A DNA stretch of 63,898 bases, counting the filler, from Collodictyon triciliatum (lineage: Eukaryota), in the NCBI GenBank assembly GCA_043381765.1. It is 4 parts of 4 records of this genome, joined end to end, with 100 filler letters (N's around TTAATTAATTAA, not from the genome) between each part and the next. Parts side by side here need not be neighbours in the genome. Positions count along the whole stretch, not along the records: positions 1 to 28,128 come from JBHJMP010000859.1; 3 more parts are not named here. One strand, 5' to 3'. Numbering within the stretch: position 1 is the stretch's first letter; each line of letters starts with the position of its first letter. Position numbers and translations under genes: made by a program. This document shows positions 1,197 through 61,509 of the stretch, one piece after another. Under the pieces are notes generated by a model. It searched no databases. It worked only from the letters and a program-made list of their open reading frames with translations, and was not told where the DNA came from.

Positions 1197-4100
1197 ATGT
1201 CGGAATGTCCGACGAAGGAAGAGCAAGGTGATTGTAGTAAGGATGAAGCGGCAAAGAACTCGGCGGGGTCAGCTGAAGAAGCATGTTTTAATCTGAAACC
1301 ACATGGCTACATGATTAGAGGCTCCCTTTATTCCGACGGGGAGAGCAGATGGACAATCGTACAGAATGAGAGAGTTTTAAGAATTTTCATGTCGTCTACT
1401 TTCAAAGATATGCAAAAAGAAAGGGATGAGTTCTTTGCAAATGCTGAAAAAAAGTAAGTTTGTATACCCGTTTGTGAATTTTAGGCTGTAATATACTTTT
1501 TTTTTTTATTACCAAATGTATAATCAATGAACCAAGGATTCTATTTGATACTGAATATGAGTATAAAGATAAATATTCAAACAGATTAAAGGATTTTGCA
1601 AAGAAGAAAGGCCTCATCCTTGTTTTCATCGACTTGCGGTGGGGACTGACTAGCGATATATCTGTAAACGGACTGGTAAGAAAACTTAACGACTTATAAG
1701 TCGACTTAAATTTCTCTCCTTATTGATAAAAAAAATTTTTTTTTTCGGTAAGGTTGTCATCAGCTGCCTTGAATCCATCGAAGAATGCCCTTACTTTTTA
1801 TGCATGCTTGGCTCACGCTATGGCTGGTCACCAAACCATGAAAATCCTTCCGAATGGCACCCAGATACTGACTTAAAATTTCCATATCTTAAAGAAATAA
1901 GAGGACTCAGTGTTACTGATTACGAGGTTCATCCGCTCATTCAATCATTTTAACTTATATGGGAATACTCATATCTGATTCAATGGATTAATTTAGATTG
2001 TTCATGGAACTTTAAAAGAAAAAGCCGTCGCCCGTCGTGCATTTTTTTACTCTCGTGATGAAGAATATGCTGTAAATTACATAGCTGAAACGGATACCGA
2101 GCAAGCTTTGTATCGCCCAATCAGTGAAAAAGATGTAAGGAAAATAATCAGCCGATAATCTGAAACCAAAAAGCTCGCAAATTTTTTCTTAATTCGATGT
2201 AATATAAACCCGAGCACAGAAAGAAAGCCAGGATGGATTAAAACAAAAAATCGGAAATGCTTTCTGTATAAAATCGTATCGCAGCCCAAAGGAACTAATA
2301 AGAACGATGGTTGATGATTTAATTGGAGCGATTGACAAAGATTTTCCCGATGAAGTGGTTTGTATTATTTTTTTTGACCACATGAAGCATTTTTTATTAA
2401 TATTTTTTTCTGAAAGAAACAATTATGAATTGAAATTTTGGTATTAAATGCCTCATAGAAAAAAAATACAGAAGACGTTTCACACGAGCAGTTCATGCGA
2501 CATCGTCTTATTGGATTGGAAGGAAGAGATGAAATCCTTGCACTTTTGAGGGAAAAAGCTTTACTGCAACTGAGCGGAGATCCTTCGGACATTATTGTTC
2601 TTGGGGCTGAGTCTGGAATAGGAAAATCGACTATTATGAGTGGGCTTGTTCGTGACCTGAATGCGGATAAAGAGTCAAAAATACTGGTCATGTATCACTT
2701 TGTCGGTTGTTCGAACTTGAGCAATTATGTGGAAAAGTAAGCCATATGATAAGATGTAACATGAATTTTTTTTTATTTTAAAAAAAACCATATTTTATAC
2801 AACCGTAAAATTTAAATGACATTAAAGTTTAGTGGAACGTGTGGGTCGGATTCTTGTTGAAAATGAAATTGTTAGCTTGAAGCTTGATTCAGAAGAGGGT
2901 AGTATCATCGAATAATACGTTTTTTATAATAGTTTTTCAGTTTGACTTTAAGTTGACAATAATTGAATTTGATATCTTATTTTTACTCTCGAAATACGTA
3001 GGAAAAGAGGTTTTAAAGAAAGGACTCGATTACATATTGCGGCTTGCATCTGCAAATGAGTAATACAAGCATCTTTGTTCCTAACGGATTCCAACTTCTA
3101 AATCTAGCAACAACAATAATAATAACAATAATAACAATAATAACAATAATAACAATAATAACAATAATAACAATAATAACAATAATAACAATAATAACAA
3201 TAATAACAATAATAATAATAGTTATAATAATAGTTATAATAATAGTAATAATAATAGTAATAATAATAGTAATAATAATAGTTATAATAATAATAATAAT
3301 GATAATTTGTGGTAGGGAAAAGAAAGCTATTTTAGTCATCGATGCAATAAACCAATTGGTCGATTCTCAAGAATATAAAAATGTCCACCGGCTTGAATGG
3401 CTTCCCAGAAAAACACCAAAGAACATATCTGTCATCGTTTCAACCATTGACACCCACGAATCATGCAAAGTTTACATTTTTTTTTTGCCTCAACAAAATA
3501 TACATTACTTACAATCTGTTTGATAGGTTGCTAAGTCGTCAGGAACCGATGTTATTTCTCTCTCTAAGCTCAATGAAGTCGGAATTAGACAAGCTACAAC
3601 ATCTTTTTTTCGGCGTTTCAAAAAAGCCTTGGACGAAAAGCAGATGAAAATGATTTTGAGTTGTCATGAAGACACAGGTGACAAAATATACCATTTTAGA
3701 CAAATATATTCTACCGCATATTTTTAACCTATGACTACTTATCTTGTGTAAGGCCATCCACTATACTTGCGTATCGTATTGGATGAACTGCGAGTTTTTG
3801 GGATTTATGAAAGAGTAGACATCGAACTCGATGAAGTATTGAAAACAAAGGGAGTCGTGAATTTGTTTAATCTCGTCATGGGTCGCTGGGAAAATAAACA
3901 TGGTTTCTTTGATTTTATTTAGATTATAAATCACAACACCTTATTTTTTTTATTCAATTAACTTATGAAATTAAACACAGGAAAGGACATCGTCCGTTTT
4001 TCTATCAGTGTTCTTTACCTGTCTCGTATCGGTCTTGATGAAAACGAATTGGATAAATATATGGAGTACCGACTGCACAAAATCGGTGTTAAAATGAATA

Positions 4101-6262
4101 TCCAAGCATGGTAATTCAATTTTAAATGAAGAAGCTAGCAGCACCTATTCATAATGGATAATATTTTCTTTATCCCATTAGGAAATCCTTCTTTTTTGTT
4201 CTGATGGATTCACTATTTGTGAGAAATGGAAGGTTTATTGAACTGCGTAAATCACATTTTGTTCTATTTTGTATTTCGAAATCTAATAATCGTCTCTATA
4301 GGTACGCTTTCTTCCATCAACTTCTCGAATATTCCGTCAAAGAGAGATACTTTAACGAAGAGGCGTATACGTCGAGTGAAGCACTCGAATATGGAGTCTG
4401 GTTGTTGAATGAATATGGCCCGAATGAGGAAGATGGCGGCATAATCGCCGAAATATGTCATAATCTAAGAATTGCAGGAGACTATGAGAAATTAATGGAC
4501 TTTTTAAAAAAAGAAAAGGTTGGTTACCCCTTTTTTTCTTAGGCTAACAATTAAGCGTGGTCATATAATTGCCATAGGTTGTTGAAAATATGCTACTTAA
4601 GAATCATCGCTTCGAATTCTTTGAGTGCTGGAGAGACCTTAATAAGAATGGATACGACCACAAGGCTACCTATGAAGAAATGACGAAGGTCATAAATTTA
4701 ACCAATATCAGAAGCTGAATAGGTTTCTAAATTTCCAATTAAACCAGAGAACAAATCGAATCGGTGATGCGCTTGTGAGCTACTTTCGAGATATACAGGA
4801 AATCAAATTTTTGATACCGATTCTCGAACATCGAATCTCTATAGAGACCAACGAAGGTTCTTTTTCTCATACTTTATGAACTGTTTTCCAAAATTAACAC
4901 AAATTTTTCATAGCTTCAAATAGCAATAATTTGCATTCCCTCGGGGCTGTTTATGAAAATCTCGGAAAGTGAGCTATTTTTCCTCATTTTTTTGCAAAAT
5001 TAATTACGCCACAATTTAGTAACAAAATAATAGGTATGAGAAGGCCTTGGAATACTTTCATAAATCGCTTCAGATTCGCCTGAAAGTATTGGAAGAAAAA
5101 CACCCTGATATTGCATCTTCATATAATAGCATCGGGAATGTTTCTGGATATCTTGGAGAGTATGACCCATAAATCAAGTGGTTTTTTAAATTAGCGATTT
5201 AATATTAGTCAATTGCATAAAAGTCACGAGAAAGCTCTAGAATACTATCATAAATCCCTCGAAATCCGATTGGGAGCTCTGGGGGAAATGCATTGTGATG
5301 TCGCTTCATCATACAACAACATCGGAGTTGTCTTTGGAGAACTCGGAAAGTATGTGAATAATACGATTTTTCCTTTATAATCGACGACTAACCAACCAAA
5401 CCAACAGACATGACAAGGCCCTAGAATATTACCGAAAGTCTCTTGAAATATCTCTCAAAATTTTTGGAGAAATGCATATCACCGTTTCATTTCCATACAT
5501 CAACATGGGAGAAGCTTATAGTAACCTAAAAATGTACGCAAACTAAGAAATGATTAGTTTTGGTATTTAATATATTCGAAAAATGTAGGTACCAAGAGGC
5601 GCTAATATACTACGGTAAATCATATGAAATTCAACTAAAAATATATGGAGAAGTACATCCTGACGTTGCTGAGTCTTATTATTGTATCGGAATCGTCTAT
5701 TTTGACCTCGGGAAGTAAGTATATTGTTTAACAAATTATTATTGGGATTTTCTTTTCTTAAATTATTCATTACATATTTTGTATTCTTATCATCTGTTCA
5801 ATAACAAATGAAGATATGAAAACGCACTCGAGTTTTTTCACAAATCTCTTGAGATCCTCTTTTATGTGTTTGAAGAGTTTCACCCCGATGTTGCAAAGTC
5901 ATACACAGGGATCGGGCGTATCTATGATAAACTGGGAGAGTATGTTTTTAATTGCAACACAACCATACGATGCGCAATCTCTAACATTATTTCCAACAGG
6001 TACGAGAAAGCTCTTGTTTATTTCTACAAATCTCACGACATTATGCTTCGAGTATTTGGGGAAGTACACCTAAAAGTCGTAGCTTCATATTATGATATTG
6101 GCAGCGTTTACGAGACACAGAAGAAATACAAAGATGCTATAAATGTTTTTCAAAAAGTTAGGGACATATACGCACAGAATCATGGTTCAAATCACTCTGA
6201 GACCGAGAGTACTGAAATGAGAATCACTGAATTAAAAGAAAAGCTACACAAATCCTTAACTA
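1197..6262 (+). CDS. Multi-exon DUF4062 (TIR-like) + P-loop STAND NTPase + TPR-repeat protein (NPHP3/TTC41/TEP1-like architecture); 3' end runs into N gap
   Basis: Spliced reading gives LRIFMSSTFKDMQKERD, FIDLRWG, CPYFLCMLGSRYGW, SVTDYEI (DUF4062 motifs); Walker A GAESGIGKST; YHFVG; Walker B-like ILVIDAINQL; LEWLP; HPLYLRIVLDELRVFG; then 42-aa TPRs (YEKALEYFHKSLQIRLKVLEEKHPDIASSYNSIGNV). GT-AG introns keep the frame in every junction traced. Confidence 0.9.
3109..3305. repeat. Intronic (AATAATAAC)n/(AATAATAGT)n microsatellite
   Basis: Tandem 9-mers inside the intron that ends at tag near 3315; explains the spurious Ile/Thr-rich ORFs. Confidence 0.95.
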
Positions 6263-6525
6263 NNNNNNNNNNNNNNNNNNNNNNNNNNNNNNNNNNNNNN
6301 NNNNNNNNNNNNNNNNNNNNNNNNNNNNNNNNNNNNNNNNNNNNNNNNNNNNNNNNNNNNNNNNNNNNNNNNNNNNNNNNNNNNNNNNNNNNNNNNNNNN
6401 NNNNNNNNNNNNNNNNNNNNNNNNNNNNNNNNNNNNNNNNNNNNNNNNNNNNNNNNNNNNNNNNNNNNNNNNNNNNNNNNNNNNNNNNNNNNNNNNNNNN
6501 NNNNNNNNNNNNNNNNNNNNNNNNN
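6263..6525. other. Assembly gap
   Basis: N run. Confidence 1.
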
Positions 6526-6578: not shown

Positions 6579-7070
6579 TTTTTTTTTCCTTTATTCGATT
6601 CAAAGTGCAGCGAGGTTATGCCATACAAAGGGGCGGGATAGGTGCGCATGGTAGAGAGCAAACGCGAGTAAGAGAAGACACTACTGTGGAGAGGCCAGCA
6701 CTGGAAATAAATCAGTGATAGCGAGTTGGTCAGGTGGGCGTCCCAACTGATTGATTGGTTGCGTGTGTAGCAGTAGCTGGACATGCTGTGGGAGATATCG
6801 CACGACATATTCCCATAGCTCTCTTCGCTTGCGATCAGATATTCTCATTACTATTCCTTTTAGTTTTATCATTCAAAATATATATTTATTGAGCACTGGC
6901 ATAACCTCGCTACACTTTGAATCGAATAAAGGGGAAAAAAAATATTTATTGAGCACTGGTCCATCTTCCAAATTCTAGCCAGAGCACCATGTAATATATC
7001 CATTCATTTATCGCTAATGTAAGTATTCAGAGCTATATTTAAAAACTATACATGCCGATCTAAAAACCCT
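6579..7070 (-). mobile_element. Decayed 3' fragment of a non-LTR retroelement (ORF end, short 3' UTR, AATAAA, poly(A))
   Basis: Minus strand: ...RKRRELWEYVVRYLPQHVQLL...LASPQ* then about 90 nt ending TGGCATAACCTCGCTGCACTTTGAATCGAATAAAGG-A9; the same terminus recurs as TSD-flanked insertions elsewhere in the window. 5' boundary uncertain. Confidence 0.6.
6882..6959 (+). mobile_element. Ultra-short 5'-truncated retro-insertion with 18-bp target-site duplication
   Basis: ATATTTATTGAGCACTGG at 6882-6899 and 6942-6959 flanks CATAACCTCGCTACACTTTGAATCGAATAAAGGGG plus an A tail. Confidence 0.85.
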
Positions 7071-7077
7071 TCCTTCC

Positions 7078-7141
7078 CTTGAATCGAATAAAGGGAAAAA
7101 AAAAGCATATATGTCCATTGATTCGAATAAAGAGGGGAAAA
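7078..7141 (+). mobile_element. Two further tail-only copies of the same retro-terminus
   Basis: CTTGAATCGAATAAAGGG-A9 (7078-7104) and diverged TTGATTCGAATAAAGAGGGGAAAA (7118-7141); no clear TSD. Confidence 0.6.
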
Positions 7142-7253
7142 GTATGCTTGTGATAGATGTTTATCTCTTACTTTGTTTAGAGTTATTATTTGATATGAAA
7201 TTTCCGAGTGATAAACTTATATGTATTTTTTATTTATTTATTCAGACTATTAT

Positions 7254-9316
7254 TCAGTCATGCTTTGTATTTTCACTTTGTTCAAAGTATACAGAATCAT
7301 CTTGTTCGAATGAAAGGTAAGCATCTTCCAAAGCTGATTTCGTCACAGATGCATCTGGTTTTGAGTACATAAAAGAAATGATTAAAACCACCCGCCTTGG
7401 TATAAGTGCCGCAAAGTAAGCGAATATCACACGTAGTATCACGGCCTACACATGGCATATATTTTGCTGGTGCGCATATATCCATGTATTCCTCTCTTTT
7501 TTACTTTACTTCATGTGTTGAGTTGCAAAAGCCAAACAACCTGATGTAGTGCTAAAATCTGATCCAGACATATCTGCATCCATTATTTGCCCTATTCAGA
7601 GAAGAGAAAAAAGAACGGAATAACGTATTGAATTATGTGGTAGGCAAGTCAAATAGGAATAGTTCAGTATATCCATAGATACTTCTTAAATGCCATTCTC
7701 GTAATTCGGTCAAACTTCAATATATCATAATTATTTTATCGTCATTTATTCACATATGTATTTAGTACCAAATATAATCCTTTCAAAGAACACATTCTTG
7801 TATTCAAATTGTGAATTGTAAGGCTGTTTTTCAAGGACGAGATAGGAATATAGTATTGTTCCATTACTTATTTGAGAGAAAGTAAATAAAAGTATACGGG
7901 AACTTCTCATAGTCCCTGAGTTTCTATCAAATATTGTGGATGAAAGAATGTCCGAAAGCCCTCTAATAATCTATTCAGGTATAAATCCCAAAAGATTAAG
8001 TTTTCCAGACATTCGTAATTTCATAGATATTTTCACAGAAAAAAATATCAATCCAGAATAATACAAAATGACAGGGTTTGTAATAATTGAGTTCGTGAGT
8101 ATTGGATGAATATAAATAAAGCGATTGCAGATTGTTTTTAAAATAAATTGCAACCAAAAGATATAAATAAAACAATATACCCCAGGAGATGATTGTCTTT
8201 CAGTAATTTGGCGAGAGCCTAAATACTCGAGATGGTTAGAAGATGAAGAAAAAAATGTCTTTGAGATGTGGAAGATTGGTTTTGTAAAGAAACAGATTGT
8301 TAGACTCATAAAGGAGTCATGAAAGAGCTAACACAGAGGGGATGAATATGAAACAATTGATACCATTGATGCCCTTAATACCTGTGGGATGTTGAAGCAC
8401 CTCCTATGTGAAGATAATCAGTTAAAAAATGCACATGTCATTTCAGCATCTTGTGTCTATTATCCTATATATTCCTGTTTTGTTTTTTCGGATACTATGT
8501 TCGTTTCTCTTTAAGAGAGTACGTCTACCCACCCACCCACCCACCACCACCACCCTTTATTGTTCGATTTGAATTTTAAACAAAGGAATATACTATAACA
8601 AAGCATCATTCAAAAATCACTACTCAATTAGGTATTGGAGTCAATTGATTCAACTATCACAAGAAAAGATACTTTTTCGTTATCAGTTTTCGCTTGTCGA
8701 GCAACCTCCTTCCCGGTATCTGTTGTTTCTGTCTCTATGGCATCTAATTGCTTTTTGAAAAGAACCGCTAACGTCGCGTGTGGGAATGTGTAAGAGTGAG
8801 TTATAAGGTATGAATAAAATGGAATAAAGGAGAAACCTTCTCACAAAACATGGGAAAGAACAAGACAAAAGAGGAGAATGAATACGTCTGGGCGGTAGGG
8901 TCCTTTTTAAACCATGCTTAAAAAGAGGGTTGCTCCTTGGTTGGTTGGTTGGTTGGTTGGTTGGTTGGTTGGTTGGTTGGTTGGTTGGTTGGTTGGTTGG
9001 TTGGTTGGTTGGTTTCACAAGTCAAAAACTTTGCAAAAAAAAAAAAAAAAAACCTGCACGAGAGCGGCACTCTGTAGCTGTTTTCTGGAACTCCTGAGCC
9101 AGAACATTCCCTGTTTACCATAATCAACTTCAGAAAGGGGTTTGTTTTTTCTTTTCCTGCACCAGCCGAGACTGATGTGGAGAAGTGTTTAGGGGCGCGT
9201 ACACTGGATGGGTTGTGAGCCAAAAGCCGCCAACTTCTGCAAAAGCTGTCGATCAGCCTCTGCGGTCCAGTCTGCCTCTGTCTTGCGATCCTTCCTCTGA
9301 ATGCGGACGATGACAT
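7254..9316 (-). CDS. Possible multi-exon hypothetical protein with mitochondrial-presequence-like N-terminus
   Basis: Arg/Ser-rich start [15 protein letters not shown]...[10 protein letters not shown] followed by several GT/AG-bounded open segments; a consistent full model could not be traced. Confidence 0.3.
8937..9013. repeat. (TTGG)n microsatellite
   Basis: Perfect tetranucleotide run. Confidence 0.95.
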
Positions 9317-9972
9317 GCATCCCTTGTCAAGCTTTTGAGAATGATTTGCAGGTTCTTGTTGCTTTTCTGCCCTACCTCAGGGGCAGATCCTCTATCACTT
9401 TCATGTTGCATGGGAGACCATCGTACTGGTTAGATTTGTATGTGCATGGCCTTGTGTGTACGCGTTCGTTCACGCCTCTTTTTTTTTTCTTTTTTTTTCC
9501 TGGGGGCTTGTTTATTTATGCAATCCTATTTTTGTGGACTAGAAACTTGAAGTGTTGTTCAATACAGCAGAAGCATGAGCAAAAGGAAGAATAGGGATAG
9601 AGGAGTAGAGGAGTGGAGGAGCGAGAGAGCCGGACATTGATCAGTGTAGATCACAATCTCTTCTTTCTTTTTTTTTAACTTTCCTTTTGTTCCTTGCTTG
9701 ATAATTATTGTTTTGTTTCGATTTCAGCAAATGAAAAAAGAGGTAGATGAAAATAGGTAAAAGGTGGGGATAGGCTAAGATAAACGGCAATATGAAAATC
9801 AACGTTTAGAGGAAGCGAGGAAAGTGGCGTCTGGTTAGTGAGTTATTGCTGTGTTTTGTTTTGTTTTGTTTTTTTTTTCCTTCTTTTGGTATTTTGTAAA
9901 AAGCCCTTTCATTCTGAATGGGGTGGCGATGAGGATGGTTTAGATGCTCGCCAAGCGGTTCGTTTTTGTTTC

Positions 9973-10042
<70 letters not shown>

Positions 10043-10664
10043 TTGTTTTGGCCGAATTTGTTATTCTTTAATCATTCGCTGTATACACCTGCGTGGCAAA
10101 GTTTACAACAGCGTAAATATAAAGTGAAAAAAATAAATAATCTAAAACATCTAATACTAGTGATAAGTGTATCTTAGAAAGTACGGTCATTAGAATATGA
10201 GGGGATTAATAAGAATAAGAATACAAGAAGCCATTTGAGGAGTCGATTATTAAAACAGTACCTGACTTCTATGGAAGTGAGACCATGGAATAATATTATT
10301 GGAAGAATAGGAGGAAGAAGAAAAGCAACACCGGGGATTCACTACATTTAAAATAAGTGATTATGGCACCAGAGAACATAGGTAGCGTAGGTAAACTCAT
10401 CTATGTATTTGCAATCACTTTCTGTAAACAAGATGGTTGGAGTTAGACGATGAAATAGAGTTCAATTTGCTGCATCACAATTAACCCATCGCCCTCAATG
10501 GGATTGAATACAGACATCAATATTGCCAACGAGGTAAAATAACAATAAGAATAATTGGAAGGATTTAACAAAGGGACCATGCAAAGAAACATGCCTGCCA
10601 ACGTACCATTTCGATTGATCCAAAACAACGGGGCAACAAGAGACGATCAACTAATGGATGCAAG

Positions 10665-10782
10665 AAAGAAGGAAGAAGGAAGAAGGAAGAAGGAAGAAGG
10701 AAGAAGGAAGAAGGAAGAAGGAAGAAGGAAGAAGGAAGAAGGAAGGAAGAAAGGAAGAAAGGAAGAAAGAGAAAGGAAGGAA
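10665..10782. repeat. (GAAGAAG)n purine microsatellite
   Basis: Heptamer tandem run downstream of the cyclin. Confidence 0.9.
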
Positions 10783-10888
10783 TAGAATGGAATAGAACGC
10801 AGAGCATGGCTGCCGGCTCAATAGATAGAAAAGAGCCCGAGGCCCTGCAAGGAGACAGAGTGGCCAACAACCCCTGCACCCGACGGGC

Positions 10889-11093
10889 TCACTTTCGGCT
10901 GCGCTGCGTCGATCTGGGTCTGGGCCGCGCCTGGTCGGTCTGGAAAGCGCTCGCCGGGGTGGCGATGTTGCCGCGCGAAGGCGGAGGAGGAGGAGGAGCG
11001 GCGGCGGCGGCGGAGGAGGAGGAGGAGGAGGAGGAGGAGGACTGGTAGAGGGACTGCGGCCGGGCGTATGGGGCAGCGGCAGGAGGGACAGCA

Positions 11094-11124
<31 letters not shown>

Positions 11125-11764
11125 CGCGGTGGGCAGAGGCGGCGCGGACGGCGGGGCTGAGCTGGATGCCGGCGGGGTTCTCTGCGGCCTGGGCGAGGAG
11201 GCGCTGGGCCTCGGCGACAAAGGCGGAGTAGATGTGCGCGAGGCGGGCGGGGTCGATGGTCAGGTGGAAGCGCAGGCCCTGCAGGAAGTCCATCTCGAGG
11301 GCGTTGAAGAGCTCCACGGGCAGCTCGCCGAGCTGGGCAAAGGTCAGGTTGTTGTAGGTGACGTCGTCCATGAACTTGGTGCCCAGGCACACGGCCACCA
11401 GGAAGAGCGGCCGCAGGTTGTCGTGCGTCAGCGCCAGCTCGCGCGTGCGCAGGAAGCGCTGCATGTACAGGATCGCCGTGCAGATCGCCTCGTCCGTCAC
11501 CAGATCGAAGCGCCGCACAAGCTGCAGCATCTCCTCCACAGACCGCTGCAGGCTCACCTGCTCGAACAGGCTGCGCAGCCCAGAACCCACGCCCGGCCCG
11601 GCTCCAACCATGCCCGCCCCCACGCCGGCCTCCCCGCACGAGCTCTCCAGGTAGTGCACGATCTGCTCGTGGATGTCCTTGCGCGTCACCCCGTGGTCTT
11701 CCGCTCGCGCGGGTGCCACGTACGCCACGATCGCCGCCTCGCGCACGCTGCTTGCCTGCGCCAT
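10889..11764 (-). CDS. PHO80/PCL (cyclin P/U-type) cyclin, intronless, 291 aa
   Basis: Cyclin-box motif AILYMQRF...NLRPLFLVAVCLGTKFMDDVTYNNLTFAQLGELPVELFNALEMDFLQGLRFHLTI. Confidence 0.9.
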
Positions 11765-13012
11765 CCCGTCTTCTTCTCTCTCCCGTGGCGTGCTTTCTCC
11801 CTCTGCCTTGCTTCCTTGCTTCCTTGCTTCTTTGCTTCTTTGCTTCTTTGCTTCTTTGCTTCCTTGCTTCGCCCACTACGTGCGCCAAATGTGAGGCCCG
11901 ACTTCACGGGAGGGCGTGAAAGGAAAAGAGAAAATGAGGCGGGTGACTTGGATGTATACTCTCGGCTCGAGGCGTGAGGCGCGAGGCATGAGGCGGACTC
12001 GTTGTGACTGGGGCTTCTCTTCCCATCCAAAACACCCCTCCCTCTCCTGCGGCCAGAGGCCCCGGCTCCGTGCGGATTCTTTGTGATGATCAGCGTTGCG
12101 TGCAGCTTGGCTTGTGATTGGATGTTTGGAGCGATGCGCAAAAAGCTATTCGCAGAAAGTCGACAAAATTAGGCACCTCTTTGTCAGTAATATTCGGTGA
12201 ATGAGGATTAATCTGGATTATATCTTGTGCCTGTCTAGGGAAAATTTCGGTTGATCTTTTTCTGGAATTTGTACAATTTTGGTGACTGTGTCAAAAAGCG
12301 GTCGAACTACCAATGCGTTCATGCCATAAAAATTCTTTTCGTTCTTTATGGACGCATAGATTCTAAGGATGACGTGGAGACACGAATTGTTTCTCCTGAT
12401 TAGGATGAATATTTCACCCATTTTGGAAGGAAAGTACAACTAGCTTGTTACCAGATATATGTAAATCGGACAAAAATAGAACTGAAGCACCGGTTGTTGC
12501 ATGCCACATAATTTATTTATATTTTATATATATTTAAAGTATAAATTTATTTATATATTGGATAAAAGTGAATTACATGTAAATTATTTATTAGATATAT
12601 TATAGAATCCACATATATATATTACGCTTTCTTTATGAAAACATCGACCAACCGCGGTTCGTTACAAAAAACCATCTAAAAAAAATCAAAGCCTGTCTTG
12701 TGGAGAAAAAAAATAAATCAGTACACATCATCATATTTGCAAGGGCGTTTCTCATCTGTGAAGTTTGAGCTTCCTATCATCTTCATTACTGCTTCTATTG
12801 GTTTCGGGCCTTGCAGTCTGGAAGAGACATTACCGTCGAAAGGCCCAGGAACCTGTGTCCTCGCGGCGTCTGGTGATGCACAGGAACCATCCATCCCGCC
12901 TTACCGACCACACCAGCTTCGAGAAAAATTCACCTCACACACATATGAGGGAGAATTCACTGAATATTCTACCTCAGAAAGACAAGAATGATCGCTAGTG
13001 ATCAATCAGAAA

Positions 13013-13100
13013 AAAACAAAAAACAAAAAACAAAAAACAAAAAACAAAAAACAAAAAACAAAAAACAAAAAACAAAAAACAAAAAACAAAAAACAACAAA
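13013..13100. repeat. (CAAAAAA)n microsatellite
   Basis: Heptamer tandem run. Confidence 0.9.
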
Positions 13101-13346
13101 GAAAATGAAGAAAAAATGGACAGAAAAAAAGCTACAGAGCACCCAGGCACGAACTTTCTTTTCTTTGTGGCATTATGGCGCATGGCAAATGATGTTTTAA
13201 ACCCCCAAAGAGAAGGAAGAAAAGAAGGGTAAATGATAAGATAAAAAACCATGGCAAAGGTTGTGGTGAAGCCGAGCCGAAAGAGTGGCGACAAGCGGCA
13301 TAACCCCATTATTACACACAAAGCAAGACAGCATACGCAAGACAAG

Positions 13347-13667
13347 ATGCAGCCGTGGAGACAAGCTGGAATGACCTACCTCAAATACGGAGAGTTCTGT
13401 TCTCAACTCCTGCGCCGCGTGCTGAAGGAGCCGTTCAAGAGCAATGCGCTGGCCAAGGAGTCTGCCTCGATCAACGTCACCAAGTGGGTGGACGGCAAGG
13501 TGGTCAAAGCAGGTGCACATATAGACATATACACATACTCCCCCCCCCTCCCCCCCCAAAAAAAAAACCGCGCTCATCACGCGGACTCAACCAAGGCACC
13601 TAATTCCCTGCCTCTCCTTCCCTTGCGCGCAAACATTACAGGTGAAGCCGCCGCCAAGTCAGCCTAA
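13347..13667 (+). CDS. ATP5F1E: Mitochondrial F1-ATP synthase subunit epsilon (2 exons: 13347-13512, 13642-13667; 63 aa)
   Basis: MQPWRQAGMTYLKYGEFCSQLLRRVLKEPFK...KWVDGK matches the WRxAGxxYxxY...LKE...KWxxGK signature; GT-AG intron 13513-13641. Confidence 0.9.
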   Translation: MQPWRQAGMTYLKYGEFCSQLLRRVLKEPFKSNALAKESASINVTKWVDGKVVKAGAHIDIYTYSPPLPPQKKNRAHHADSTKAPNSLPLLPLRANITGEAAAKSA

Positions 13668-13881
13668 GGACACTCGCATGTGCAGCGACCACGGCCACCG
13701 AAACATAAACCAGAATGAAAAGAAAGCCAGCTGCACAGAGCGAGCCCCAAATGACAAGTAGAGCAGAGGAGAGAATGTGGTCCTGATGAATGTAGTAGGA
13801 TGAGCGGAGCGGACCGGGGAGACAACGGAAGAAGAGCAAAATAGCCAGAGGCAGGAGGCAGGAAAGAGACTGAGAGGGAAG

Positions 13882-14934
13882 CTAGAGGCTCGGGTAGCCG
13901 CCGTGGACAACCATGACCTCGTCGTTCTCAAGCATGAGGGTTGTGCGGGAGTACTCTGTGTGCCAGAGGTTCTGGACGACGTCTGTGAACTGGAACTTGT
14001 GGTAGACGGTGCGGGCAAGGCCCCAGTAGGCCTTCTCGGCCAGGACGCGGAAGACCTCGATGTCGAAGGGGTTCTCTGCGTGGGAGTCCTCGACAAAGGG
14101 CATGACGACGTCGAAGTAGAACTGGCGGAACTTCCAGTCGCGCATGTTGTAGAGGGCGTTGCCGTTGACGTGGTAGAAGAAGGACTTTGTCTGGGGCACG
14201 TACTTGAAGGAGCCGCGGTAGAGGCTGCCCTTTGCCCAGAAGTGGGGGTTGGGCCAGCGCGTCATGGAGTCCAGGACCATGAGCCAGCCGGGGCGGATGG
14301 GGCGGCAGTCGGGCTCCATGAAGTAGAGGTAGAAGGGGTCCTTGAGGGCCAGGCCGCCGTTCATCATGTGCTCAAACATCAGGCGGCAGCCGCGCGGGTA
14401 GTCGTCGTCCTTGCCGACGAGGTGGATGTAGTGGAACTCGATCCCGCCGAAGCACTGCTGGATCTCTGGCGGCAGCGCGTGGAACGCGTCGGACAGGTTC
14501 TTGTTGACGTTGTTGTGCACCGGGTCTGCCGCAATAAAGAACGACAGCGTCGCGTGCCCGTACAGCTGCATGCCGTAGCGCTTGGCCATCCGCACCGTCT
14601 CGCGCAGCCGGCCGCTGCTCTGCACCAGCGGGTGGTCCTCCGACGTCAGGCACGGCGGGTAGTCGATCCACATCTGCATGTTCTCGATCGCCCGCCCCGT
14701 CTGCTTCACGTGGAACGGCATCAGCACGTGCGTGAGGCGCTGGTGCTCAAAGTCGATGCTGAACCACACCTGGCTCTCCTCCCCGCTCGCCCACCCCGCG
14801 CCCCCGAGCGCAACAGCCACAACCGCCGCCGCAACCACCGCCCCCTGCACCGCCCACCCCCGTCTGCTGCTGTGGCTGTGGCTGTGGCTGTGGTTGTGGC
14901 TGTGGCTGTGGCTCTTGCTTTTGCTTTCCTCCAT
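13882..14934 (-). CDS. Type II membrane protein, putative glycosyltransferase-like, intronless, 350 aa
   Basis: Short (HS)n N-tail, one hydrophobic anchor (AVVAAAVVAVALGGAG), globular domain with YFMEPDCRPIRPGWL, FWAKGSLYRG, HVNGNALYN, VVHGG; strong GC3 codon bias. ORF is solid; the function is inference from topology and the acidic EPD motif. Confidence 0.6.
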   Translation of the reverse strand: MEESKSKSHSHSHNHSHSHSHSSRRGWAVQGAVVAAAVVAVALGGAGWASGEESQVWFSIDFEHQRLTHVLMPFHVKQTGRAIENMQMWIDYPPCLTSEDHPLVQSSGRLRETVRMAKRYGMQLYGHATLSFFIAADPVHNNVNKNLSDAFHALPPEIQQCFGGIEFHYIHLVGKDDDYPRGCRLMFEHMMNGGLALKDPFYLYFMEPDCRPIRPGWLMVLDSMTRWPNPHFWAKGSLYRGSFKYVPQTKSFFYHVNGNALYNMRDWKFRQFYFDVVMPFVEDSHAENPFDIEVFRVLAEKAYWGLARTVYHKFQFTDVVQNLWHTEYSRTTLMLENDEVMVVHGGYPSL

Positions 14935-15605
14935 CGGCTCCTTGGCGATCTGTTTCTCTCTCTAGTGTTTGTTTGCGTTAGTCAGCCTTCCTTCCTTCCT
15001 TCCTTCTTTTTTTCTTTCGTTTTGCTTTCTGCTTAATCGTGCATTTCCCTTCTTTCCTTCTCTCTCGCTCTCTCCTTTCTAACCACTAATCCTTTGTTCT
15101 TCTCTCTTTATATGTATTCATTCATTTTGTACTTTCTTTACTTGCTTTTTTTTTTTTTGTTTTCACACCCCTATTCTCTTCTCTGCTGCCGGGCTGTTTG
15201 CTGTTCACTCTGTTGGTTTCTCGCTTCGCAATCGTTTTCGTTCATGGGCTTCTTTTTTTTTCTCCTTGGCACTGAGCAACAAGCAACAGAAGGGTTCAGC
15301 GCCCAGTCATTACCAATTAATGCTGAGTTGTGTGCGAGGGCTCCGTTATTTTTTCCGCTTTTTTGTTTTTTGGCAAAGGTTGTGCGTGAGTACGGTAATG
15401 TGGTTGATCAATAGGACTATCATGGCTGTGTTTGAAATCGCTGGAGTATGATTGTTCCCCTCAAATTTTGAAATACATATCTGGATTTTATTTTTTTAAA
15501 AAAATACTGACACTGCACATTGGTGAAAGAAGGGAGGAATTGCGCTGTGGTCTGTGCCGCTGGTTTAGCTAGTCGTGTATGCATCATGACATATCTTCCT
15601 CTGTT

Positions 15606-15630
15606 ACTTGAATCGAATGAAGGAAAAAAA
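15606..15630 (+). mobile_element. Diverged tail-only copy of the retro-terminus
   Basis: ACTTGAATCGAATGAAGG-A7. Confidence 0.5.
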
Positions 15631-16431
15631 GATTGTTCCATCGGTTACATAAGCCAACTGTGCAAGACGAAACGAAACGAAACGAAACGAAAACTCAACA
15701 AAGACGATATACCATCACCACCACTATCGCAACCACAATCGTTGCGCTATCGCTCCTCTACCGCCCTTATAGCAACCCATATCTAAAACCAATATATTCT
15801 TTTTAATTGCTACTTTTATAAATACATTTTTCTTCACTTTCTTTGTTGGTCAATCATTTATTTCATCGCGTACATCCTTTATTCTTTTTTTTTGTTTTAC
15901 CGCATCAGAATAGATATAAAAATAATTTAATTCGAAAAAAAAGCCACTGAATCACATTGCTACTAATAGATTTATATAGTCATCGGCAATCACTCTTTCT
16001 TTTTTTGTACAGTTATCATTGGCCAAGGAGACAATCAAGTGCTCAATCGTTTTGCATTTAATCAATCCCTCACACCGTACACTCTACAGGTATGCAATAA
16101 TGTCTGCACATCACCATAAAGCTTCACCCTTTGATGCAGCTGCCTTCCCGAAGACCCTCATTAGCATATGTGAACCACCCGTGTGCCATCAGCAACCTCA
16201 TGCAACCGCAAACATTTCTCACATCCAGCATATACTATTTCACAAGCCACCAAAAAAAAAAAAAAACTCTACCTTTGCTTGCCTCCTGTCAGCCATAGGA
16301 CAAAACTACCAAAATAACAATAAAAAAGACTCGCAAATTATGTCAAATTCATTCATCGTCTCCCTCAGAACGCATCTCAACGCAATTCAATTCGACACAA
16401 AACAATAAAATACGGAAATACAGAAAGAAAA

Positions 16432-28128: not shown

Positions 28129-28228
28129 NNNNNNNNNNNNNNNNNNNNNNNNNNNNNNNNNNNNNNNNNNNNTTAATTAATTAANNNNNNNNNNNNNNNN
28201 NNNNNNNNNNNNNNNNNNNNNNNNNNNN
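28129..28228. other. Artificial contig linker N44-TTAATTAATTAA-N44
   Basis: Identical 100-bp six-frame-stop spacer occurs three times. Confidence 0.97.
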
Positions 28229-32470: not shown

Positions 32471-35400
32471 TCAGCGGTGAGCAAACTGAGAAGGAAAATT
32501 CCAGTCATAATCGGCATACTTGATGCGTATACTTTCACCTGCGGCAGCTGCAATCATACCATTCAGAATCTTTTGCATCTCGAGCGGTAGATACGGACAC
32601 AACCTTATCAGCAACTTATTGGCACTTGTTGAAATCACCGCCTTATCTCGTTCGGATTCTGCCGCATCTACGTCTAATAGGAAATCCTGCTCATACCATT
32701 CCATGACCTTCGGTAGCAGCACAGATCGGCGGTCGGGCGAGAGAACAACATGCTCCTGTAGATAAAGCGCAGCAGACTCCCTGATTTGAGCCACGCAATC
32801 GGCTTTGGTTAAAACCGGAATGACTCGGCTTGAGGGAGAGGAATTAGCTCCGCAGTGAAGGATAAAGCTGATTCCGGGCTCGGCTGGCACGAACGGAAGG
32901 GCAGACAAAACTGCGTTGGTTCGGGGGCGTATCAAATAGGAGGCGATCTTGCGTCCAAAGAAACTGGAATTCAACTGTGGGGGTGCCAGCTTGCGACGCA
33001 GAATCTGATGCTCAATCTCCAGGGGTGAAAGCACAAGCCCATCCACTTCGTACGAGAATCGCTGCATGTGTGTCTTTACGTTGTATCCGCCACCTGTGAT
33101 TCCAGTAGGTGCTCCGCATTCCAAGATGATGTGAATCACCAACACGTGATAGAGATTTGTATAGAATGCAAGCGCTGAGGTTCCAGACGGAATCGATTCT
33201 GCTGCATTGGCGCCGTCTGTAGTCTTTTCTTCAGACTCTGAAGTGTTTTGCTCTTTGTTGCGGTCGCGGATTCGAACAATCTGCAACTCGCTAGCTGCTT
33301 TGACAAACGACACGAATCTAGTTCCAAATGTTTCATCATGCCAAAAGTCGTATCCGGGCGCACTGGCGTCTTGGTAGAGAGAAAGGGCCTTCTCCAGCAA
33401 ATCTTCGATTACTTCGTTTGCGTCTCGAGATTCACTGTGGTCCCACAACAGTTTGCGTCGATTCAAAACCACGCGCTCTTTTTTGCCTATCCTTTCGGCA
33501 AAGGACTCACTGAGTGTTGGAATACCACTTCCTGCAGGCAATGAACTTGCTATCATGCTTGATAACAACGACGATGATGTGGTGGGTGGGTTGGGAAGAG
33601 AGCTTTGTGTTGGCACGATGGGACCTGATGCTGCGTTGGGTGTTCCTTGAGACGACGAAGCTGTTCGTGGGGTCGATGGTGTCGATGGTGTCGATGGGCC
33701 AGACGTTGAAGTGGATAACAAAGAAGACGGTCCAATTCCTGCGCTTCCTGGTAAAGAACCAGATGAGACAGAGTTTCCGGTAGGTCGAAGCTTCTTCAAC
33801 TTTGAGACTTCAGTGGTGATTGTGAGAATCCACTCGATAATCCACGACTGGTTTTCGTTGCAAAAATAGAAGGATTCCACCAAGGTCTTGATTTCGATAA
33901 AATGCCACCCAGGGAAAGGGAGTTCTCCTGTGACCCGACTAACTGACGTGATACTGTGTAGCGGAATCATGTACTCGGGTGTCTTTTGACGGTATTGGAA
34001 AATTCGTAAATAATCGCGCGTTAGTATCACCCAAACATCCTTCCACGCAGTTTTCCATTGCGCCAAGATGAGCTGGCCTTTCTTCACAATAATGTCAACA
34101 AGATTGCTTGGCATATTAGAATTGGGCATGTAAGGGAATCCTTCCTGGCCAAAGCTCTCCGCAATTGGAGCTTCGGCGTCAGAGCTAAGGAATGCATCCA
34201 GAAAGCGGCTGTTTGCGATGACCTCGTCAGAAAGTATGGATGAGAAAAAGCCGTTCAGCAAGTCCGGCACAGCATCCGTAGATGAAAGCTCTTCCTGAAT
34301 TCCTTCGACATCAGCACTATTCAAGGAGGCACGCTTCAAAAGATTCACCATATCGGGGGTTATTCCCGATTCTCCACTGCTAGATTCCAAAGCCTTCTTT
34401 GACGAGGATAAGGAATTCACATTTGAAATGGACTGTCGGATGGAAAGGCTCCTTTTGTTGAGCTTCCAGGCCTCTTTACATAGGTCATGGAGTCCTCCAA
34501 GGTCTTTAATTGTTCTCAACAGTGTGTGTTCATTTGCATTTGATTTTGAAGCATCAGTTCCATTCCCGTCAGCTCTTACTACAATCAAAAACATCACTTG
34601 CATTTTCCCGGCGCAAAGGCGTTCAATCCACCCAGCTACTCGGACGTTGTTGAATGAGGTGGCCATAGTTCTTGATTTGGGCCCTACAGCTCCTGGCATG
34701 ACTGATTTTAATGTATTGTCAGCCTCAGATGAGGACGCAGATACTCCATCAGATGAGCCTCGGACCAGCCCAGATGTTTGTGGGGTTGTTGTTTGGGACT
34801 GCATATTGCCGCTTGGTGATGAAGTGACAGGATTTGGCGAATTGGTGATATTTTGGACCACAGCCAAGGATGGATTAGGTCGCACGCGAAACTTCAAGCC
34901 CAGTAAGGAGACAGTCTGCATAGCCGCCGATGTGAATAAGGACGTTGTAAAATCGATTCCTGTAATTATCATAACGAAAAAGGAAACAACTCCAAAGATT
35001 AATACCACAAGGATTCCTGCAGGTTCAATGCCGATTTTGGCTGATGTGCTTTGTAAAACTTTGCCAATCTGGTCAGCAACTTGTGCCCACTTGGAGTTTG
35101 TATCCGGAGTTCGGCCAAATACATAAGCGGGTGCTGCTCCTGATGTGGTGGTTGTGATAGGGTTTGTCACGGTTTGATTTGAAGTGGGCTGACCGGAACC
35201 TCCGGCTTGGCTGGATGCTTCGAGATTGGTCGTCGTCTTTTGAGTCGCTGGTTTTGGGACAAAAGGGGTTGGTTTGAATCCTTCGTCAATCACCTCTTGG
35301 ATGAATTCCATGTCCAGTAAGCGACCCTAGAAAAGAGGTGTATCATACACATTAAGCCTGTGCTTTGCGTGAAATACTAAGGGTTTCATGAGAAAAAAAT

Positions 35401-40619: not shown

Positions 40620-40719
40620 NNNNNNNNNNNNNNNNNNNNNNNNNNNNNNNNNNNNNNNNNNNNTTAATTAATTAANNNNNNNNNNNNNNNNNNNNNNNNN
40701 NNNNNNNNNNNNNNNNNNN
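40620..40719. other. Artificial contig linker N44-TTAATTAATTAA-N44
   Basis: Same spacer as at 28129. Confidence 0.97.
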
Positions 40720-49389: not shown

Positions 49390-50110
49390 NNNNNNNNNNN
49401 NNNNNNNNNNNNNNNNNNNNNNNNNNNNNNNNNNNNNNNNNNNNNNNNNNNNNNNNNNNNNNNNNNNNNNNNNNNNNNNNNNNNNNNNNNNNNNNNNNNN
49501 NNNNNNNNNNNNNNNNNNNNNNNNNNNNNNNNNNNNNNNNNNNNNNNNNNNNNNNNNNNNNNNNNNNNNNNNNNNNNNNNNNNNNNNNNNNNNNNNNNNN
49601 NNNNNNNNNNNNNNNNNNNNNNNNNNNNNNNNNNNNNNNNNNNNNNNNNNNNNNNNNNNNNNNNNNNNNNNNNNNNNNNNNNNNNNNNNNNNNNNNNNNN
49701 NNNNNNNNNNNNNNNNNNNNNNNNNNNNNNNNNNNNNNNNNNNNNNNNNNNNNNNNNNNNNNNNNNNNNNNNNNNNNNNNNNNNNNNNNNNNNNNNNNNN
49801 NNNNNNNNNNNNNNNNNNNNNNNNNNNNNNNNNNNNNNNNNNNNNNNNNNNNNNNNNNNNNNNNNNNNNNNNNNNNNNNNNNNNNNNNNNNNNNNNNNNN
49901 NNNNNNNNNNNNNNNNNNNNNNNNNNNNNNNNNNNNNNNNNNNNNNNNNNNNNNNNNNNNNNNNNNNNNNNNNNNNNNNNNNNNNNNNNNNNNNNNNNNN
50001 NNNNNNNNNNNNNNNNNNNNNNNNNNNNNNNNNNNNNNNNNNNNNNNNNNNNNNNNNNNNNNNNNNNNNNNNNNNNNNNNNNNNNNNNNNNNNNNNNNNN
50101 NNNNNNNNNN
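49390..50110. other. Assembly gap
   Basis: N run. Confidence 1.
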
Positions 50111-53424: not shown

Positions 53425-54278
53425 TTAAGAGTCTGAGTGTCCATGTCCATAAGAGTGGTCGGTATGGGTAGTGTGATGAGCATGATGAGCATCATGGCCT
53501 GTATGCATTGCGTGATGGGCATTATGGATGGCCATGTGAACACCATGCATATCATGTCCCATATGCATTGCGTGATGGAAATTGTGCATGGCTACATGAG
53601 CATCATGTGCACCGTGTCCCGTGTGATGAGCCGTCTCGTTGTAATAATGCCCATAAGGAGAAGTTTGGAAGTGGGAGGGTGTGGATTTAGTATCTTTGAA
53701 TGGTTGGTATGAATAAGAAGCTTCGGTGTTCTGGGCTCCGTGTGCACCAAAAGGAAAATGAGCCAGCATGTTTCTTGTACTTAAATAGTGCTGGATACGT
53801 TGAGCCGCTGCCATCATCATAAAGATGGAGAATACAAGCGTAGCCAAAGTTCCGAATTTACACACAACTCCGTCAGCATCACTCTCACACGTGTTTTCTG
53901 TGACGAACCAGCCCACGATGGAGACGATACTCAATATTATTGATGCATACGCGGTATATATTGCCCTCGCAGCATCCTTGTCTAGTTTGGTGCGACCTAC
54001 GTACAAAGCTAGGATAACAAATGCACCTTTACAAAGAATGGTGATAATAAAGACAAAGACGACAATCTGTCCTTTATCAAAGACATGGCCCAGAAATAGA
54101 GCCACGATGTTTAGAATGATTGAAACTATGCCGAGCCCCGTTACAGTCCTATCCGGGTATGCCTATCAAGTTTCGTTAACTCAATGGTGTTGAAGTATAT
54201 AGTATAAACCGCTTGATTTATATATTATGTGAAGCAGGGGTGCGATTACAGCGAAGGCATGAATGACCACACCACCAT
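53425..54278 (-). CDS. 4-TM membrane protein with His/Met-rich C-terminal tail
   Basis: Four hydrophobic segments, Cys pair between TM3 and TM4, tail HHTGHGAHDAHVAMHNFHHAMHMGHDMH...; main exon starts after an AG acceptor near 54162; start codon inferred. Confidence 0.75.
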
Positions 54279-55271: not shown

Positions 55272-55865
55272 TCAATCATGAGGACCATAAAGGCTACCCG
55301 AAAACTGAATATCTTTGCTCGACATATTGCCTTGGTTTTCAGATAAAGTCGCAGCTATGTATGGTGTATTTTGGTAGGTTTGGTTCGGATAACCATATAT
55401 CAGATTATCTCCATGGTGGATAAGAGGCTGGTGGTTTTCTCTGTTTGTGGTGTCCGCGGTATTTTGTTGTATAATCGCACAAACAATTGATAATACCAGC
55501 GAGAGGATTATGGTGATCGACCCAAGGACAGAGCAAAGCTCATCTTCTTCTCTGGAACTCCCATAGTAACTGTAGTAATAGTTACTTGTTTCGCAATTAT
55601 CTATCCCATAAATGAACCAAATAACCACAAGTATCAAGTTGCAGAGGAACGAGGCGTAAGCCAATGATGTTGATGAGCTTTGCTGCGGGTTTATAGGTTC
55701 ATTTTTTTGTTTAAAACAAACAACCAGGTGAGTTAGCTGAACCAAGAGGCAAAAAACAAACATTACTAAAAGTATTGCCTCACTTTCGAAAATATTCCCT
55801 ATAATACTCGTGATTATCAACAGGATAACACTGGCCGCCGCGCAGTAAATCGGACCATTGCCCAT
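55272..55865 (-). CDS. 4-TM membrane protein (tandem paralog)
   Basis: Four hydrophobic segments, DNCET...ELC loop, C-end FSGSLYGPHD. Confidence 0.8.
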   Translation of the reverse strand: MGNGPIYCAAASVILLIITSIIGNIFESEAILLVMFVFCLLVQLTHLVVCFKQKNEPINPQQSSSTSLAYASFLCNLILVVIWFIYGIDNCETSNYYYSYYGSSREEDELCSVLGSITIILSLVLSIVCAIIQQNTADTTNRENHQPLIHHGDNLIYGYPNQTYQNTPYIAATLSENQGNMSSKDIQFSGSLYGPHD

Positions 55866-57130
55866 CCCGCCGTTCTAGAATATCGAGGAACAAGATGACC
55901 GTATGAATACCTCCTCTGTTCATATAACACCTTTTGATTAAAATAATCGACTTATGTCAGAAGGCTAACGTTGATTTGTAGTGTCTCATCCATCTGGCCT
56001 CAACGAGCTTAACAAATGTATGCGTCCAGTCGTGGTGGTCTCTCTTAGTTCGTGAGATAGTCAACCGGGCCTCCTTTTGCTCTTTTTTTCTGACCCAGGT
56101 TCTATCAAACACAAGGCAGTTGTCATTGAATAAATTATTTTCTGCTAATTAATTTTTTTTTGTTCAGCTCATCCGTTGGCAGAACCGTTCTGCGAGAGGA
56201 ATGTAATGCCATCGAATTCATTTTTCTTGATATTTCCAAGATTAGTTTCTTTCTCAAACACTCAGAAAATGAACATGGCGTATGTCTTTTGTCGAGTTAC
56301 CACTTCAAAAAATAGTTACTCGAGGGTTCATCGTGATTCATCTACTATCTGCGCGGTTGTTTGCTGAAATATTTGACGATGCCATTAGTCGGGGCACCAA
56401 GATAAGTATATTAGCTCATATTTGATTTTATTATAATTTTTCTTCGCGCTTTATTGAAGAGATTTACATAAAAAAAACGAGACACGAAAAATGAACAGTG
56501 TAAGTTACCTCAACAAAGGATACGCCCAAGGTTGCAAGGTTCCTATATTTGCCTAGCTTGTTCGCTCATTCACATCGCTTTATGAAAAAAGAAGTTCAGA
56601 TGTAACCATAGATGTTCTCCTGGAAGCTATTGCAAACGATTTTATTATTCCCAATCGCTTTATTTCGTTCCAAAAACTCATTCGTGTAACAATGCTAAAT
56701 ATTAGGATATCAAATTTTGATTAGAATCTCTTTAAAATATAGAAAAATAGAAAATGATTTGTGGTATATTTACCTTTATATTATAGAGTTAATGATACAA
56801 CAAATAATTAAAATAAGATACTAATCTCGTTTATTTACCAAAATTGGTTTACATATAATTTTAACCATTTTCCATAAATCATAAATTATTTTACTCCGGT
56901 TCGTTTCAGTTTTTAATATTTTCATATTTTGAGAGTGCAATTTAGTCGTGTGCAAAAAAAATTAAAATACCACACCATGTAATCATAGCAATATATATTT
57001 GAAATTATGATATAAATTCAGAAATATTGTATTCTGCTGACTTTATTATTTCCATCTCGATTTCTAACATCTTTCAATCAGAAAATCTACTCGCATGTTC
57101 CAGCCCAGTGGTGAGATAAAAGGTAGGGGC

Positions 57131-57979
<849 letters not shown>

Positions 57980-61409: not shown

Positions 61410-61509
61410 NNNNNNNNNNNNNNNNNNNNNNNNNNNNNNNNNNNNNNNNNNNNTTAATTAATTAANNNNNNNNNNNNNNNNNNNNNNNNNNNNNNNNNNN
61501 NNNNNNNNN
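61410..61509. other. Artificial contig linker N44-TTAATTAATTAA-N44
   Basis: Same spacer as at 28129. Confidence 0.97.

Follow-up and report, generated by a model that had tools for sequence, protein, structure and literature searches.

What kind of history leaves a gene with several consecutive exons of exactly the same length, each encoding a single repeat of its protein? The question is raised by a locus of Collodictyon triciliatum, analyzed here in a stretch of 63,898 nucleotides (nt) from GenBank assembly GCA_043381765.1, hereafter the window, whose first 28,128 positions come from JBHJMP010000859.1. Between positions 5034 and 5939 on the plus strand lie five exons of 126 nt, each encoding one tetratricopeptide repeat (TPR) unit of 42 amino acids. 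Such an array might be at work diversifying a receptor or might be a settled inheritance. The evidence considered below makes it probable that the array goes back to an old tandem duplication of an exon together with its intron, in a known kind of NLR-like gene, and that it is not engaged in active generation of diversity.

The five exons are numbers 18 to 22 of their gene and occupy positions 5034-5159, 5224-5349, 5408-5533, 5589-5714 and 5814-5939 (all +), as found by reading the sequence, by script and by a unit-profile scan. Each is preceded by AG and followed by GT, and at either end the reading frame is interrupted after the second codon base (phase 2). One unit is encoded per exon, running from Y/H-E-K-A-L to L-G plus a split codon. 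The introns separating the five exons are 64, 58, 55 and 99 nt long and those flanking them 65 and 60 nt. In order, these six introns (17-22, within 4969-5999, +) lie at 4969-5033, 5160-5223, 5350-5407, 5534-5588, 5715-5813 and 5940-5999, and four of them begin with GTAYG. Between exon 17 and exon 23, every one of the six boundaries is in phase 2 and falls at the identical point in the repeat; the last boundary between units, inside exon 23, has no intron. The equal lengths are not a matter of chance, since lengths among the gene's other 17 complete exons vary between 51 and 278 nt, with just one (138 nt) seen twice. The 126-nt exons end in AA, GA or AT and start with G, T or A, so that any skipping, duplication or swapping of exons would stay in frame and create a sense codon, never a stop. 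The preliminary description of this DNA had proposed exactly this freedom from frameshifts, along with five 126-nt exons cut at the same codon position and separated by dissimilar introns, and the measurements agree with it on all of these points. For the introns, the mean local alignment score (8.73) is no higher than that of shuffled sequences (8.67 +/- 0.48), 88 of 200 shuffles reaching the observed value.

The gene can be read from 1197 to 6262 (+) as 23 exons and 22 introns, GT-AG in 22 of 22 cases, with an open frame of 1075 codons. Its final exon enters a gap of N's (6263-6525). No more than a few codons are missing, because P0051 of Diphylleia rotans matches the protein along its whole length (residues 41-1073 of the protein against 12-1054 of P0051, 44% identity over 1045 amino acids). 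Contigs of a small sequencing run (X1) carry the gene with its introns removed, and on that ground X1 is read as RNA; none of the runs used is on record as RNA. GT..AG joints in X1 fall exactly at 12 or more of the 22 predicted introns (12 of the 15 joints listed, out of 24), those of introns 17-19 not being among the ones listed. Joints flanking the 126-nt exons are 5533>5589, at the 3' end of exon 20, 5714>5814, and 5939>6000; exons 21 and 22 have both of their joints in X1, and the last joint recurs in X4, a run from a related organism (B, about 90% identical), of which one contig spans 6000-6228 of the last exon. The joint between exons 16 and 17 (4854>4912) is present in X1 as well. The five exons belong to an expressed gene, and no exon skipping is found among the X1 joints listed. 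Parts of the gene also have matches at about 99% identity among the contigs of two metagenomes, one from fresh water (X2) and one from lake water (X3); in X2, X3 and X4, parts of the gene without cover carry no weight. Three further joints, 1453>1595 (X4), 3961>5759 (X2) and 5256>5638 (X4), have no splice-site fit and short sides of 21-26 nt, and were set aside as paralogous or foreign. The gene's sole long intron, intron 8 (256 nt, including 3103-3313), consists almost entirely of a hexa-/trinucleotide microsatellite of the AATAAC and AATAGT types, and was left out of contig matching as a repeat.

The age of the array can be judged from the divergence of its units, in a comparison that covers the exons of this single gene. 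The six units (those of the five exons and one in exon 23) form 15 pairs with 51-66% nucleotide identity. The proportion of synonymous differences (pS) reaches or exceeds saturation in 13 of these pairs, and the remaining two have synonymous divergences (dS) of 1.62 and 2.02. Identity at third positions lies between 0.24 and 0.46, compared with 0.27 expected from composition. A search of both strands of the 63.9 kb with protein and DNA profiles, in six frames, found no further TPR unit or relic exon beyond the six units and a partial one in exon 17, and introns of 55-99 nt are too short for hiding a 126-nt exon. Comparison of the spliced protein with the rest of the window (tblastn) also gave no other match, 28 of 28 matching segments lying within 1197-6261. 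The one feature that the introns of the array do share is the GTAYG donor, present in four of the five inter-unit introns and in none of the 17 others (Fisher p = 6.8e-4), which fits descent from one ancestral intron.

The nearest relatives of the gene come from D. rotans, a collodictyonid flagellate of the CRuMs, where a paralogous family of 11 Trinity genes was found with a single exon as query. The HMMER search with exon 6 gave 16 matches: 11 D. rotans transcripts, three exon-sized open reading frames (ORFs) on short contigs, one ENA protein and one from a diatom. P0051 and, at 39% identity, P0049 and P0047 align with the window's protein from end to end; the four proteins are colinear, have equal numbers of TPR units and show no unit-sized gap in the TPR region. 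Although the D. rotans relatives belong to another species and are known as transcripts, so that exon lengths cannot be read directly, positions of introns can be deduced from isoforms that appear to retain them. Of seven truncated isoforms, five either terminate or begin to differ precisely where introns 16, 17, 19, 20 and 20 of the window's gene fall in the alignment, with tail residues compatible with GT donors of matching phase; the other two break elsewhere. An internal deletion of unit size is absent from all 13 D. rotans isoform pairs; the differences are 5' truncations, ends resembling intron retention, and point changes. Many of the Trinity isoforms (P0033, P0036, P0041, P0045, P0046 and P0048) stop at intron positions, which suggests that introns are often retained, or else that pre-mRNA or DNA entered the transcriptome.

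These results bear directly on the possibility that the array is an active, modular system for diversifying receptors, as the preliminary description had it. Its picture of a receptor-like gene with cassette-shaped exons stands, and its picture of active diversification is not supported: synonymous sites are saturated in 13 of 15 unit pairs, relic or antisense TPR exons are absent from the 63.9 kb, neither the listed X1 joints nor the 13 isoform pairs include a skipped unit, and the three closest paralogs have kept unit count and intron positions. Symmetric exons that yield a sense codon in every combination are what such a system would need, and the expansion of the family to 11 Trinity genes in D. 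rotans also favors it. A further point in its favor is an X4 contig with the look of a mosaic, in which the start of exon 19 (5231-5256) is followed by 16 unlike letters and then by exon 21 from 5638, at the matching offset, the shorter side being 26 nt (the joint 5256>5638 mentioned above). The contig may represent an ortholog of exon 21 that has diverged, a paralogous sequence, or a product of exon-to-exon conversion. On balance, we regard active diversification as very unlikely.

Several further observations weigh against an old and settled array, two of them being also what a diversifying system would lead one to expect. The window's units resemble one another more (mean identity 48.3%, maximum 66.7%) than they resemble units at the same position in homologs, which would also fit an array rebuilt or homogenized after the lineages split. 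Array length varies among distant paralogs, a hidden Markov model of the unit finding nine units in P0055 and four to six in others; in addition, P0052 has a different C-terminus and P0028 has extra WD40 repeats. A comparison with P0051 gave no positional orthology of individual units, identity being 41.8% for units in the same position and 39.9% for the others, with only two of six rows best on the diagonal, a matrix that is uninformative because all units lie near one consensus. The RNA label of X1 is a guess, and skipping may occur at a low level, since contigs drop rare isoforms. As to function, the roles of the protein in binding, NAD+ hydrolysis and immunity are argued from homology, and the first acidic residue of a motif in its putative effector domain is Asp; either Glu of the corresponding motif in TEP1 may be the catalytic E1008. 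Saturation of synonymous sites disfavors a recent rebuilding or homogenization, and the differing array lengths of distant paralogs imply that units were gained or lost over long times. Nothing points to current shuffling; units have been gained, lost or homogenized over long times, as in any repeat family.

The order of events could also be the reverse, namely that an uninterrupted array, as in bacteria, came first and each unit later acquired its intron separately at one shared site, perhaps through sequence-targeted insertion leaving behind GTAYG, a copy of how the next exon starts. Uninterrupted arrays do exist among relatives. A metagenome scan with the unit alignment found them, at 126-nt spacing, in 80 of 80 loci examined, a sample biased towards contiguous arrays because its confirming query read through an intron. 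A period of 126 nt is in itself characteristic of this kinesin-light-chain type of TPR. Full-length relatives also exist in bacteria, where the DUF4062-TPR proteins P0060, P0061 and P0063 align over 96-97% of P0051, but they are 25-28% identical and the gene here is in 23 exons. The first letters of the introns (GTATGA, GTATGT, GTACGC, GTATGT) are similar to those of the exons (GTATGA, GTACGA, GTACCA), which could be a duplicated target site, and the last unit boundary, inside exon 23, is intronless. However, such a history requires six separate insertions, all at one and the same base. Nor do the ends of the exons (GGARA, AAAAT) resemble the classical proto-splice site MAG|R, and the intron bodies share no mark of one inserting element. 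The same positions are, moreover, already present in the three D. rotans paralogs, so that any gains would have to be as old as the duplication model requires. Repeated gain of introns is therefore a weaker alternative to old tandem duplication, and we consider it unlikely.

If tandem duplication of exon and intron is taken as the origin of the array, in what kind of protein did it occur? The predicted protein has an N-terminal DUF4062/NIR domain, a P-loop STAND NTPase, and about eight 42-amino-acid TPR units of the kinesin light chain type. Exons 1-5 (1197-2357, +) encode the DUF4062/NIR domain, whose fold is that of a TIR-like NADase effector. With the Pfam DUF4062 model, exon 3 reaches 29.3 bits (cut-off 24.7) and exon 1 reaches 20.3 bits; the match of exon 3 to the TEP1 chain 11gz_A is weak (E 0.07). 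The match to this structure of the human TEP1 NIR domain is far stronger for the D. rotans relative P0052 (E 2.5e-19). At the end of exon 3 is the NIR motif, T-D-Y-E in the window and T-E-M-E in TEP1, a difference in the first acidic residue seen by comparison of sequences; the second Glu, the last codon of exon 3, is kept in six of six aligned family members, in which the first position is D, H or E. Exons 6-15 (2459-4688, +) encode the STAND P-loop NTPase followed by a helical region, with Walker A in exon 6 and a Walker B-like stretch in exon 9. Exon 6 alone scores 21.4 bits with NPHP3_N and 19.4 bits with AAA_16, both under the cut-offs, while full-length D. rotans relatives pass the cut-offs for NACHT, nSTAND1 or NPHP3_N, have AAA_16 matches as well, and also carry DUF4062 and TPR_12. 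NB-ARC has no Pfam match on the window's exons. In PADLOC, exon 6 gives a weak match to Avs2 (E 0.0086), the search otherwise returning a generic TPR match.

The remainder of the protein is the TPR arm, which scores 72.2 bits with TPR_12 (cut-off 30.1). Exons 16-17 (4748-4968, +) encode its first, divergent unit, which a phase-1 intron splits at another point than in the array; a partial unit match covers 4941-4968, and the 3' end of exon 17 is the first L-G-K phase-2 boundary. Following the five 126-nt exons, the last exon (23, 6000-6262, +), truncated by the N gap, encodes two units without an intervening intron, a canonical one of 42 amino acids (6000-6125) and a degenerate one that caps the array. 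Repeats of this 42-amino-acid TPR_12/TPR_10 type also make up the TPR domain of kinesin light chain (PDB 3nf1 and 3edt, among others), and P0052 matches the TPR chains of KLC1/2 at 1e-11 to 1e-9. However, the match is limited to the repeat arm, kinesin light chain being without an NTPase or NIR domain. Other searches returned little that is closer. A word-indexed search of a collection of 5.8 billion protein clusters with exon 6 gave no match and no near-identical protein, the last 150 amino acids retrieved generic TPR proteins at 24-38% identity by the same type of search, and a metagenome scan with the last exon gave 291 pattern matches, none of them a relative. An Rfam scan of the window gave no match.

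The identity of the domains leaves room for a protein that is not an immune-type sensor at all, but a scaffold of the NPHP3/TTC41 type with a housekeeping role, such as a flagellar one, in which case the exon layout would be irrelevant to recognition. The Pfam models NPHP3_N and TPR_NPHP3 do match weakly, the nearest relative is a flagellate, and array length has been kept among the closest paralogs. Housekeeping genes, however, are usually single-copy. Within one species the present family comprises many, deeply diverged members, with variants carrying WD40, RRM or COR domains (P0028 being the one with added WD40 repeats), and its three-part layout is that of a bacterial defense protein, Avs2. 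DUF4062 has been renamed NIR in a 2026 preprint that reports NAD+ hydrolysis for bacterial Avs2 (DUF4062-STAND-TPR) and human TEP1, as well as NIR-bearing NLR-like proteins across eukaryotes (bioRxiv 10.64898/2026.09.04.749371). The same preprint describes the functions of mammalian NIR proteins as largely unknown, which leaves the scaffold some ground (bioRxiv 10.64898/2026.09.04.749371). The domain order found here is that of the NIR (DUF4062)-STAND-TPR proteins covered there, including Avs2 and the eukaryotic TTC41, NPHP3, NWD1/2 and TEP1, and on the strength of this shared layout the gene is taken as a member of the same kind. A housekeeping role is on these grounds unlikely.

A precedent for the exon layout comes from the brown alga Ectocarpus, where 13 of 24 NB-ARC genes have TPR exons of 126 nt and 42 amino acids (Zambounis et al. 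2012, PMC3341825); the preliminary description had quoted this case correctly, and its mention of a different N-terminal domain in the present gene was also right, DUF4062/NIR standing ahead of a STAND NTPase of the NACHT/NPHP3_N type. The Ectocarpus genes are alike in having frame-neutral 126-nt exons, one TPR with linker each, behind a STAND NTPase. The differences are several. In Ectocarpus, introns are reported to contain inactivated TPR exons, mean dS to lie well under 2, and the TPR domains of paralogs to defy alignment (PMC3341825). The present gene, by comparison, has no inactivated exons in its introns and its units are saturated in divergence. On alignment between paralogs the picture here is mixed: the TPR domain of the window's protein is colinear with those of its three nearest D. 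rotans paralogs, the distant ones differ in unit number, and units could not be matched one to one. The NTPase is of the NACHT/NPHP3_N/nSTAND1 type, not NB-ARC, and has DUF4062/NIR in front. The TPR subtype differs too: the Ectocarpus signature given there starts G-K-Y-x-E-A-E/D-P-L, whereas the units here start Y-E-K-A-L-E-Y. The parallel is in layout only. A bolder proposal would be that two widely separated eukaryotic lineages, brown algae and a CRuMs-type freshwater flagellate, each built STAND/NLR-like receptors with 126-nt frame-neutral TPR cassettes, and that the cassettes here still vary the receptors, by gain, loss or exchange of exons between paralogs or by regulated skipping, coupled to an NIR NADase effector. 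We think this distinctly unlikely. In a literature search of limited coverage, the exon layout was not found described outside brown algae, nor were DUF4062 proteins found linked to it.

The surroundings of the gene offer some observations of their own. Just downstream, at 6579-6941, is an element resembling a miniature inverted-repeat transposable element, whose 45-nt terminal inverted repeats show 93% complementarity and are separated by 273 nt; additional copies of its terminal motif lie nearby (7079-7143). The G+C content is 0.30-0.35 around the TPR gene and 0.44-0.54 at 10-16 kb, a sharp change in composition (8000-16000 against the rest). Farther along the window are long, intron-poor ORFs rich in low-complexity runs. 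Among the ORFs are one for a PHO80-like cyclin (10889-11875, -) and one for a protein with PH and DUF547 domains (32471-35326, -). Three tandem ORFs at 53425-54162, 55272-55874 and 57131-57769 (all -) are similar in length and hydrophobic pattern and may be a small membrane-protein family; the two that were scanned have no Pfam match. Two ORFs at 58827-59204 and 59534-60061 (both -) resemble pieces of a TnpB/Fanzor-type transposon nuclease, the former having a Cys-x-x-Cys zinc-ribbon-like end and a weak Pfam match to Cas12f1-like_TNB (E 0.0099, below the cut-off). Paired runs of 44 N's, 12 nt apart, occur at 28129-28228, 40620-40719 and 61410-61509, with larger gaps at 6263-6525 and 49390-50110; the regularity of the paired runs suggests a masking or scaffolding convention, not ordinary gaps.

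How, then, might the array have come about and what might it do? The five 126-nt exons would make up the central part of the TPR sensor arm in an NLR-like STAND protein. A 126-nt exon and its intron would have been duplicated in tandem long ago, in an ancestor of the gene family in a lineage near Diphylleia, and the array would afterwards have been an ordinary, constitutively spliced coding region. Its units would then have diverged to synonymous saturation, and its introns would have been randomized except for the donor motif, with gain or loss of units being rare. By homology, the TPR arm may bind a ligand and the STAND module may oligomerize, and the NIR domain would hydrolyze NAD+, as reported for bacterial Avs2 and the NIR domain of human TEP1.

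The locus provides a second, independent example of one 42-amino-acid TPR per 126-nt exon in a STAND receptor-like gene, in a little-studied lineage, and its presumed effector is the NIR NADase domain, which was described recently. The locus indicates that a layout of one TPR per exon can be an old and stable inheritance. Symmetric repeat exons are therefore, by themselves, no evidence for a mechanism of diversification.

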